DNA of 39,105 nucleotides from a virus (Duplodnaviria > Heunggongvirae > Uroviricota > Caudoviricetes), in IMG/VR virus record IMGVR_UViG_2609459852_000013; one strand, 5' to 3'. This document shows, piece after piece, positions 15,001-18,000 of the stretch (within the stretch, counting starts at the first letter, position 1; every line of letters starts with the position of its first letter). The position numbers were made by a program.

Positions 15001-18000
15001 ATATGGGATGTCTGGGATGGGGAGGTGCTTATTTCTATGGTTGGGGAGGTGCTTTTTATTATGGATTTCCATGGTGGGTTGTTGGTGCTGGCGTAGATGA
15101 TGTGGCAAGAAGCCTGTTTTACGCTGTTACAGCTATCGTAATTTTTCTTGTTGGATGGATAATTGGCGTTAGAATGATTATAAATCTTTGCGACGTTATT
15201 TTTCCGTATCAGCAGCCGTTCCTTATACGGGGGAGGGGGGCTGGCCGCACAAGCACGTGCAGTATTTCCCCGGCAAACACCCCTGTGAAACATCGGTAGA
15301 CATGTTGCGTCAGATAATTATCACCAGCGGTCGTCAAGGTAATTTGGTTGCGCACTTTTGCTGGGCGTTGGGCGGTTGCTGCGAAGCAGGAAGATGAGAA
15401 ATTTAATCAGACTGTGAGTGAAGTAAAAAATAATTGTTAACAGTGTGCAATATTATTCCCGGAAAATGCGGAAAAATAAAAACATGTACGTATATTTACG
15501 ATTATTGACGTTGTGTTTATTGAAAATGACGGAGATATTCGTATTATTGCACCGTGCCACCGCAATGACGCGATGGACAGGCCCTTTAGCTCAGTGGTGA
15601 GAGCGAGCGACTCATAATCGCCAGGTCGCTGGTTCAAATCCAGCAAGGGCCACCATCACATACCGCCATTAGCTCATCGGCAGAGAGCGCCTGCTTTCGA
15701 AACTGGCTGTGTGGGGCTCGGGTCCCCGATGGCAATCCATTATCTGCATTATGCGTTGTTAGCTCAGCCGGACAGAGCAATTGCCTTCTAAGCAATCGGT
15801 CACTGGTTCGAATCCAGTACAACGCGCCACGCTTATTTTTCCAGGCTCGCTTCGGCGGGCCTTTTTCATATCCGCGCCACGCCCGGCGCACATCAAAAAA
15901 CCACAGAGCCTTTCAGGGATGAGCTTACGGGATGGTCAGTGTGACTTTCTCTGTGGGCTGGTCACCCCCGGGCGCAGGCTCACCCACTAAAAGGAAAAGT
16001 CACGATGTTTGGTATTTTCAAAAAGAAAACCCGCAAGGCCATTACCGAAGTGAAGAAGATGGAGAACCGTGACGCAGTGGAGGCGACCGTCTGGGGCGCG
16101 TACTCCATTGCATACGCTGACGGCACCTGTGACGCGAAAGAAATCGCGGTACTGGAAAAAACCATTGCAGCACTTCCTGCCTTTGCGCCGTTCTCCGGTG
16201 AGATTCCACAAATGAGTGCAAATATCCGCGCCCGTTATGAAGCGTCGCCGCGTTCTGCCAATGCCGAAGCTCTTCGTCAGCTGGCTGATGTTGCCGGTAC
16301 TGATGATGCAGTTAATGTGCTGTGCCTGTGTCTGGATATCGCTGACCAGGACGGTATCGGTCAGGAAGAAGAAGCGCAACTGAAGAAAATTGCGCAGGCG
16401 CTGCAGTTGCCGCTGGAGCAGCACCTGTGAAAAGTGCGCGCCTTGTGCTGGCTGTCATCCTGTTGTTTCTGGTAGTGGTGGTTGATTTCACCGGACGACT
16501 GATATCGGTGCTGGCAGATGGTGTGCTGGTGGCGATGGCGCTGGTCGTGCTCCGGCCTTTACTGCGTAAATCTGAATAACATCACACAAAAGGCATCTGC
16601 GGATGCCTTTGACGGGGTGTTTTTTTACGGGTCGCTGGTGGCCCTTTTTTTATTTTCAGGAGGAAGTATGTCTGAACCCTTATCCGGTTCCGGCACGGCT
16701 GCGGCGCTGGGTGGCGCGACGGTATTCGGGCTGTTTACCGGGATGGATTTCGGGATTGTGTTTGGCGCGTTCGCCGGGGCGTTATTTGTGGCAACGATGC
16801 CGCAGTCACTTTCAGTCTGGCGCGTGGTGGCGCATTTTCTGGTGTCGTTTATTGTCGGCGTGCTGGGAGCGCGTGTGCTGTCAGCCTGGATTGCATCAAA
16901 AACAGGGTATGACGGTACATCAGCAGATGCGCTTTGCGCGGTGCTGGTCTCGGTGGTGTCGGTGAAGATTCTCTCGTTCATCCACCAGCAGGATATTGCA
17001 TCGCTGGTGTCCGGTGTGTTCTCCCGCCTGCGGGGTGGAGGAGGCGGCAATGTTAAGTAACCTTCCCGGATTGCTGAATGTGGCGTTATGCATGGTTATC
17101 GTGCTGACGCTCTTTTTTTATCGTCGCCGTGATTCCAGACATAAACCGCTGGTGTCATGGCTGGCCTGGCTGCTGATGCTGCTGTATGCCTTTGCGCCCC
17201 TCAGCTATCTGTGTGGTCGCCCGTTAGCAACGGGCTGGCTGGAAGTGTTTTTTAATCTGCTGTTCTGCGTGCTGGTGATACGCGCACGCGGGAACGTCAC
17301 AAAAATCTTTCCATTGTTGAGGTGAATATGCCGGGTAAATTCAGATTCAGCCGTCGCAGTGAAAAAAATCTGGAGGGTGTCAAACCACAGCTGGTTGCTG
17401 TAGTTCGCCGTGCGCTGGAGCTGACGGAGGTTGATTTCGGTATTACGGAAGGCCTGCGCAGTAAGTATCGCCAGAAACAGCTGGTTGCGGAAGGGAAAAG
17501 CCAGACCATGAACAGCCGCCACCTGACCGGTGATGCGGTGGATGTTGTGGCCTACATCGGTAGCCAGGTGTCATGGGAGTGGCCTCTGTACGAGAAAATC
17601 GCACAGGCATTTAAGCAGGCTGCCGCAGAGCTGGGGATCGCTATCGAATGGGGTGGGGACTGGAAAACGCTGAAAGACGGACCTCACTTTCAGCTGAAGC
17701 GATAAGTAAAACAAAACCCCGGCTGGGGGAACAGTCCGGGGTTTTTAGTTTTCACGTCAAAGGGGAAATTGTGATTAGTGAGTACGGAGAAAATCCTCGT
17801 GGGAAAGTATAAAAGATTCTTTTTGAGGTTGTCCATTATGAAAGGTATTGAAATGGAAACTCCCGCGAGCCTTGATTTGACAAGGGCTGCGGCCTTTGCA
17901 ATTCGCCTTGTGGCGGTCGCTGTTCTGATTTGGGCTGTGCGTTGGTGGTGATATGGCGCGAAAACACTGGACACACAGAATGCCGCGAACGGCGGTGAAA

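Follow-up and report, generated by a model that had tools for sequence, protein, structure and literature searches.

What does a prophage keep at the site where Stx phages keep their toxin genes, if it carries no toxin? The question is raised by a 39,105-nucleotide stretch of a Caudoviricetes virus (IMG/VR record IMGVR_UViG_2609459852_000013, the whole of which we call the window). In the late operon of this phiP27-like prophage, between the ileZ-argN-argO tRNA genes and the holin genes, lies a pair of small genes, tciA and tciB. A preliminary description had reported a TerB-like protein of 141 amino acids at 16005-16430, and we find this open reading frame (ORF), which is on the plus strand and starts with ATG, exactly as claimed. 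The pair and its surroundings form a two-gene accessory cassette composed of a leader, tciA, tciB and terminators. We show below that this cassette and stxAB are alternative cargo of one site, with exact allelism on two phage backbones.

The window is collinear with the Stx2e phage phiP27 and with phage phiSTEC1575-Stx2k, and the claim that the gene occupies the stx slot is therefore directly testable. In local blastn comparisons, homology to phiP27, to the Stx2k phage and to the Stx2a phage F723 ends at 15878/15879, which is 49 bp after tRNA-Arg(UCU) and just beyond a terminator hairpin. On the right, homology returns at 16625, directly before the holin gene, in the comparison with the Stx2k phage, and at 16485, inside tciB, in that with phiP27. 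The breakpoints 15878, 16485 and 16625 thus bear out, at the level of the base pair, the earlier proposal that this is the site used by Stx phages for stxAB. The unrelated 933W-type backbone displays the same allelism. There, a non-Stx prophage of O157:H7 has the order tRNA-Ile, tRNA-Arg, TerB, DUF3927, NanS-p esterase, holin; against the Stx2a phage F723, homology stops 48 bp after argO and is back 15 bp after tciB, and stx2AB (positions 5299-6667 of locus L013) is allelic with tciAB (positions 3938-4669 of locus L011). In the phiP27 (Stx2e), Stx2k and Stx2a/933W types alike, the site starts 48-49 bp after argO, and with either cargo its far end precedes the lysis or nanS-p genes. The cassettes also resemble each other in comprising two genes that are co-oriented with the late operon and presumably depend on pR' and Q. 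They differ in that their proteins are unrelated, the window encoding no toxin, and in that tciAB has a long conserved leader where stxAB has a short stx promoter region. The statement that no stx-like ORF is present also holds: tblastn with the A and B subunits of Stx2a and Stx2e found no Stx homolog anywhere in the window (best E 0.56). Likewise, no StxA occurs within 4.5 kb of tciA at any of 174 loci.

The order of events in one lineage may be read from phiP27 itself. Directly 3' of stxB2e, at 4757-4876 of its extracted locus (18914-19033 of NC_003356), phiP27 retains a decayed tciB that has an in-frame stop and a frameshift and is still detected by tblastn; the remnant partly overlaps L27, an annotated reverse-strand "hypothetical protein". 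The presence of a decayed tciB beside stx2e suggests that this Stx2e phage descended from an ancestor carrying tciAB. In the most economical reading of these sequences, tciAB came first, and the stx2e cassette then took the place of the leader and of tciA, while tciB stayed behind and decayed.

The product of tciA is a full-length, standalone member of the TerB family and is not part of a Ter system. It matches Pfam TerB (PF05099) with 32.0 bits (E 1.6e-7), above the gathering cutoff of 24.4, as the preliminary description had anticipated, and a divergent allele of the type found in O157 scores 53.4 bits. PHROG 632, "tellurite resistance", matches it along its whole length at 5.9e-64. A scan that covered 1.84 billion cluster representatives yielded a family of only 165 related clusters, nearly all of them standalone proteins of 140-150 amino acids. 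The profile of 91 family members aligns with the solved Klebsiella TerB (PDB 2JXU) at E 1.5e-28 over the full length, from profile position 5 to 142 of 143 and from residue 11 to 149 of chain 2jxu_A. The two proteins share family, length and a pair of acidic motifs. In the window these repeated TerB-family motifs (A-x-A-D-G-x5-E) read ADGTCDAKE and DQDGIGQEE; they contain D39, G40 and E46, and D116, G117 and E122, of which G40, E46, G117 and E122 are near-invariant, being at least 90% conserved in the family alignment. With a dN/dS (ratio of non-synonymous to synonymous substitution rates) of 0.02-0.03 across 56 and 39 alleles, tciA is under strong purifying selection and is a real gene. Other searches were negative: Foldseek found no significant structural match for TciA in the PDB, NCBIfam had no match for TciA or TciB, and PADLOC-DB 2.0 gave no defence-model match at E<=1 for TciA, TciB or two neighbouring ORFs. 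Unlike the Klebsiella gene, which belongs to terZABCDEF clusters, tciA is phage-borne in a late-operon slot and lacks TerC, TerD, TerE, TerZ, TerA and TerF as partners. No ter genes were found in the 41-kb annotated prophage region or among the neighbours at the 174 tciA loci.

The partner of TciA is instead a hydrophobic DUF3927 protein of 50 amino acids, two of them invariant acidic residues, encoded by tciB, a gene overlooked in the preliminary description. It matches Pfam DUF3927 at 1.1e-13 and PHROG 1470, "TciB-like", at 4.9e-22, and its start codon, GTG, lies in a 4-nt overlap (GTGA) with the tciA stop codon. This arrangement is general. A small ORF with the signature DF[TS]..DG lies directly 3' of tciA in 157 of 164 evaluable loci, and the 4-nt overlap recurs in 153 of the 157 loci with both genes, so that TciA is evidently translationally coupled to the tiny hydrophobic TciB. 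The pair is retained in lambdoid phages, in P1 and in the virulent N4-like Salmonella phage FSL SP-076; an alignment of TciB from lambdoid prophages, P1 and a virulent N4-like Salmonella phage shows R5, D20-F21, D31-G32 and P44 to be invariant. One database protein (P0052) is a natural TciA-TciB fusion, possibly a frameshift artefact. Apparently solitary DUF3927 genes in O157:H7 were considered and rejected, because a divergent TerB allele, invisible to blastn, adjoins those copies.

The names of both genes come from phage P1, whose tciA-tciB(-tciC) genes (Lobocka et al. 2004 annotation; NC_005856 gp074-076) were named "by homology" only. TciA of P1 is 85% identical to that of the window in protein and 80% in DNA, and the DNA homology is limited to exactly the tciA coding region. 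As in the window, tciB follows tciA directly and tRNA genes are close by, including a tRNA-Ile(CAU) 86% identical to the window's. P1 differs in that the genes belong to the early, C1-repressed ban operon of a phage-plasmid, the 126-nt leader is absent and a third small gene, tciC, is present; tblastn with P1 TciC found no match in the window.

The leader, which runs from the left cassette junction to the tciA start codon, is itself conserved. It is about 90% identical between window-type and O157-type cassettes, whose TciA proteins are only about 43% identical. Within each allele type, it evolves 7-11 times more slowly than the tciA synonymous sites of the same locus pairs, with leader divergence relative to synonymous divergence, K/dS(tciA), at 0.09 and 0.14 (429 and 435 pairs). 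It also precedes tciA in Klebsiella and in other phages that lack the tRNAs, and it is absent from P1 and replaced in Stx phages. A motif scan placed it solely in front of tciA-type ORFs, in 107 distinct regions, and a pattern scan of genome contigs recovered it in 3 species representatives. Rfam has no match over 15879-16004, its sub-threshold matches being to the terminator hairpin only. A leader peptide was rejected as the cause of the conservation, since only 20 of 59 variants have the 23-codon upstream ORF, which a frameshift disrupts in the others. An alternative explanation is recombinational homogenisation of the tRNA-leader block.

Whether the leader is a structured RNA is less clear. 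The single-sequence fold has a z-score of -0.92, and in a first RNAalifold consensus the covariation did not go beyond shuffles (52-74 of 500); these covariation tests were limited in diversity, as single-protein queries gave close relatives only (at least 91% identity). RNAalifold on 93 leader sequences preferred a different fold, with an invariant 8-bp helix (15901-15908/15949-15956) and a long-range helix (15880-15886/15968-15974) in which 27 distinct sequences have UA in place of CG at the pair 15883/15971. In both paired fraction and covariation score this second fold lies above all 500 shuffles, with double changes at only one pair, possibly the result of a single split between clades. 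The compensatory pair 15883/15971 suggests a structured RNA; given this mixed evidence, we describe the leader, on the pattern of its conservation, as a constrained non-coding element. It could hold an unrecognised signal. A bolder proposal, which we consider unlikely, is that the leader would be an undescribed cis-regulatory RNA, possibly a ligand- or stress-responsive 5' untranslated region, gating a lytic TerB-DUF3927 membrane module of many phages (lambdoid, P1, N4-like and jumbo), and that Stx phages would have arisen by displacing this ancestral cassette.

Based on the above data, we tentatively favour, with a confidence a little short of evenly balanced, an explanation of tciAB as a late, Q-dependent, membrane-associated TerB-TciB module of lytic growth. 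Both genes point in the same direction as Q and the lysis genes, the terminator-like hairpins 15843-15870 and 16590-16656 flank the pair, and a consensus scan found no sigma-70-like site between 15548 and 16005, leader included. Genes at the stx site are transcribed from pR' under Q control (PMC8065619). With no recognisable promoter and with intrinsic terminators on either side, tciAB, like stx2, probably owes most of its transcription to polymerase that starts at pR' after induction and has been antiterminated by Q. In the proposed sequence, prophage induction would lead Q-modified polymerase to read from pR' through tciAB; TciA would then be held at the inner membrane by its basic N-terminus (MFGIFKKK) and by TciB, and the pair would modulate or monitor membrane or cation status while productive infection runs, as a dispensable fitness factor. 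The docking step may well be correct, by analogy with TerB, which is reported to be membrane-associated and to pair with the membrane protein TerC (PMC11003894; Millman preprint). The further step is more doubtful, and we think it rather unlikely, if possible, that tciAB serves in the productive cycle to condition the inner membrane or to monitor it (homeostasis of divalent cations or of membrane potential), as opposed to conferring tellurite resistance on the lysogen. A lytic role is supported by homologs in strictly virulent Schitoviridae, in Erwinia jumbo phages and in Pseudomonas phages.

Several observations count against this explanation. The promoter scan used a crude sigma-70 consensus that a weak or alternative-sigma promoter in the leader could escape, so that expression of tciAB in the lysogen is possible. 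The position of the P1 genes in the early, C1-controlled ban operon means that timing differs between phages. P1 tciA, tciB and tciC are non-essential by CRISPR interference (PMC10695390), and the tci operon is variably present in P1-like phage-plasmids and lost in nearly half of one P1 subgroup (PMC9603915). Contact between TciA and TciB is deduced only from gene overlap, co-occurrence and the one fusion that may be a frameshift, and we found no published experiment on any TciA or TciB, tellurite tests included.

Read literally, the annotation would make tciAB a lysogenic-conversion locus, expressed in the lysogen and protecting the host against tellurite, oxidative stress or pore-forming colicins. 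TciA does belong to the TerB family, ter clusters do give resistance to tellurite, phage and colicins as well as oxidative-stress tolerance (PMC11003894; PMC9603915), and the cassette is both insulated by terminators in the manner of a moron and abundant in pathogenic E. coli. However, the smallest ter fragment reported to confer resistance is terBCDEF, with TerC described as the key protein (PMC11003894), and the prophage has no terC, terD or terE; moreover, no promoter-like site was found 5' of tciA, the P1 name rests on homology alone, and homologs occur in strictly virulent phages, which are never lysogenic. The terBCDEF minimum, the lack of other ter genes and the presence of the pair in virulent phages make tellurite resistance an unlikely role for tciAB, and we hold the conversion reading as a whole to be distinctly improbable. 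Hardly better placed, though still improbable, is superinfection exclusion or anti-phage defence, in which a TerB sensor would work with a small effector in the membrane to keep out incoming phage DNA or to abort infection. Analogues are the TerB-containing systems Shango, Bunzi and Dionysus and the Phi phenotype of ter clusters: TerB domains occur in validated defence systems, with a proposed function in membrane surveillance, and TciA shares the TerB domain and the proposed membrane link with Shango SngA, Bunzi BnzA and Dionysus DinB. TciB, being small and hydrophobic with invariant acidic residues, could form a pore, and prophage-rich enterohaemorrhagic E. coli (EHEC) genomes hold several copies. 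Against this, the helicase, ATPase and pore-forming-toxin partners of those systems are absent, no PADLOC model matches TciA or TciB, expression is predicted to be late and lytic and not constitutive, and tciA is phage-encoded, in virulent phages too.

The position of the pair directly 5' of two holin genes, in the window as in other P27-type prophages, invites a function in lysis timing, with TciB as an antiholin-like or holin-modulating membrane protein and TciA as its regulator, and TciB does resemble holin-like proteins in size and hydrophobicity. Yet tciB is cut off from the holin by a strong terminator, 933W-type prophages have a nanS-p esterase gene of 1.85 kb between tciAB and the holin, the P1 genes are far from the lysis genes in the ban operon, and in N4-like phages the pair lies among early genes; we see only a slim chance that this is its role. 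The chance is slimmer still for a counter-defence decoy, whereby phage TerB would mimic or titrate host TerB-based sensing (ter clusters, Shango, Bunzi, Dionysus). The gene does occur in virulent and jumbo phages, one of the TerB-containing defence systems is aimed at jumbo phages and selection on TciA is very strong, but the argument is purely one of analogy and TciA is nearer to the operon-type TerB (2JXU) than to any defence model.

Features of the tciAB locus and its surroundings in the window, with the evidence for each.
Feature	Coordinates	Strand	Evidence or description
Late antiterminator Q gene, 250 aa	12811-13563	+	Antiterm PF03589, 1.5e-51; PHROG 127, 1.3e-102; PGAP "antitermination protein"
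Sigma-70-like match TTGAAA-16-TATTAT (10/12), 33 nt 5' of tRNA-Ile	15520-15547	+	Consensus scan
tRNA cluster, equivalent to ileZ-argN-argO of Stx phages	15580-15829	+	ARAGORN
tRNA-Ile2/Met(CAU)	15580-15655	+	ARAGORN; Rfam tRNA 72.5 bits
tRNA-Arg(UCG), argN	15663-15739	+	ARAGORN; Rfam tRNA 23.5 bits, under gathering cutoff 29
tRNA-Arg(UCU), argO	15753-15829	+	ARAGORN; Rfam tRNA 70.1 bits
Terminator-like hairpin and T-run after the tRNAs	15843-15870	+	Terminator scan: 8-bp stem, 6 GC pairs
Conserved non-coding leader, 126 nt	15879-16004	+	From left cassette junction to tciA ATG
Candidate helices of the leader	15880-15886/15968-15974; 15901-15908/15949-15956; hairpin 15934-15946	+	Covariation suggestive only
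Shine-Dalgarno AAAGGAA	near 15992	+	In leader
tciA, standalone TerB-family protein, 141 aa	16005-16430	+	N-terminal MFGIFKKK; two A-D-G-x5-E motifs
tciB, DUF3927 small hydrophobic protein, 50 aa	16427-16579	+	Pfam; PHROG 1470
Two tandem terminator-like hairpins in the tciB/holin gap	16590-16656	+	Sequence: AAGGCATC-TGCG-GATGCCTT, then GGGTCGCTGGTGGCCC and T-run
Lysis cassette, same type as phiP27	16668-17705	+	Holin, holin, M15 endolysin
Holin, Phage_holin_8	16668-17060	+	Pfam/PHROG
Holin, Phage_holin_3_7	17050-17325	+	Pfam/PHROG
M15 endolysin	17322-17705	+	Pfam/PHROG

The cassette is widespread. Counting it where at least 80% of its length is covered, we find the window-type cassette in 165 of 5426 complete E. 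coli genomes; the divergent O157-type pair is present in some 800 genomes (median copy number six, maximum ten), and tciB-like DNA is detected in 1293 genomes. In EHEC (O157:H7 NE1127, locus L011, and M1/5, locus L012), each copy of the TerB and DUF3927 genes sits in a different lambdoid prophage, between the ileZ/argO tRNAs and a NanS-p gene. TciA homologs appear in 100 phage records, which include lambdoid phages, P1/P7/D6 and SSU5-like phage-plasmids, virulent Schitoviridae, and Erwinia jumbo, Pseudomonas and Vibrio phages. In the lambdoid phages, tciAB is again found with Q on one side and the lysis genes on the other, and the tRNAs, where they accompany Q, vary in identity. Three otherwise unrelated contexts have flanking tRNA genes: Ile/Arg/Arg in the window, Asn/Thr/Gly in phage JLK-2012 (3599-3832 of locus L006), and Asn/Thr together with Ile in P1 (3116-3269 and 4701-4776 of locus L002). 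Further loci have Val, Gly or Thr and Gly, so that the tRNA association is recurrent. Across tciA, tciB, the holins and the endolysin, the DNA of a record named "Actinobacillus phage vB_Apl-pPE4" (PP818812.1; 5001-8152 of locus L005) matches this E. coli prophage at 91-94% identity, which makes Actinobacillus pleuropneumoniae doubtful as the host of that phage.

That tciAB can stand in place of stx is already known as an observation, and the cassette is in itself ordinary: RefSeq annotates the genes, P1 tciAB were named two decades ago, and the replacement of stx has been noted in print. The NCBI Prokaryotic Genome Annotation Pipeline (PGAP) calls them "tellurite resistance TerB family protein" and "DUF3927 family protein", a 2022 paper mentions a "tellurite resistance protein in place of stx2d", and a 2013 paper (PMC3728262) records "function unknown" for the TerB gene of virulent Salmonella phages. 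What might interest specialists is the function of the pair, the tciB remnant of phiP27 and the constrained leader.

As for the surroundings, the region is 100% identical to prophages located beside yccA in E. coli O166:H15 and related human isolates. The tRNAs detected by ARAGORN 5' of the pair, and the holins and endolysin 3' of it, confirm the placement given in the preliminary description. The tRNA region is 88-93% identical to that of Stx2 phages, which also conserve the hairpin at 15843-15870. It is worth noting that PGAP does not annotate argN in the identical RefSeq record and that many related loci have only the Ile2 and Arg(UCU) genes; the tRNA-Arg(UCG) at 15663-15739 may be degenerating. 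The sigma-70-like match at 15520-15547 is a possible tRNA promoter, to be taken as a lead only because such sites are no more numerous in the region than expected from shuffles. The 88 nt from tciB to the holin gene hold both tandem hairpins, and the terminator scan matched at 16629-16644 in this interval. The endolysin is followed by an HNH endonuclease gene and then by P27-family terminase genes. In sister prophages (E. coli O166:H15 JNE070796, 1830-2393 of locus L010), an extra ORF of 187 codons, with no Pfam family, lies between tRNA-Arg and the tciA leader as a second cargo gene of the same slot.

Upstream, pR' is expected just 3' of the Q gene at 12811-13563. The expected late transcript also includes, between Q and the tRNA cluster, a reverse-strand ORF of 134 codons (13764-14168) and an isolated tRNA-Gly(CCC) at 14358-14430 on the plus strand; the product of the former is hydrophobic at its N-terminus, and searches of Pfam, PHROGs and PADLOC assigned it to no family. 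At about 14955-15440 (19396-19881 of locus L001) are two PGAP pseudogene fragments, one of them a truncated site-specific DNA methyltransferase; at the counterpart position, just 5' of its tRNAs, phiP27 has an intact methyltransferase (L24). Lastly, a second Q-family antiterminator gene at about 8759-9283 (L001 13200-13724) is distinct from that at 12811-13563 (L001 17252-18004), the two being separated by a DUF6731 gene, hokD and a DUF968 gene. The two Q-family genes suggest a mosaic or tandem late-regulatory region.

What occupies the stx site here is thus a gene pair under very strong purifying selection, and among the slots of lambdoid prophages this is the one that induction activates most strongly. 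The pair is found in roughly one fifth of complete E. coli genomes, in up to 10 copies in EHEC, and is shared with virulent phages. Its constrained leader offers a concrete handle on how tciAB is regulated, and knowing the function of tciAB would clarify both what the stx slot was used for before the toxin genes came and what the non-toxigenic prophages of EHEC express upon induction.

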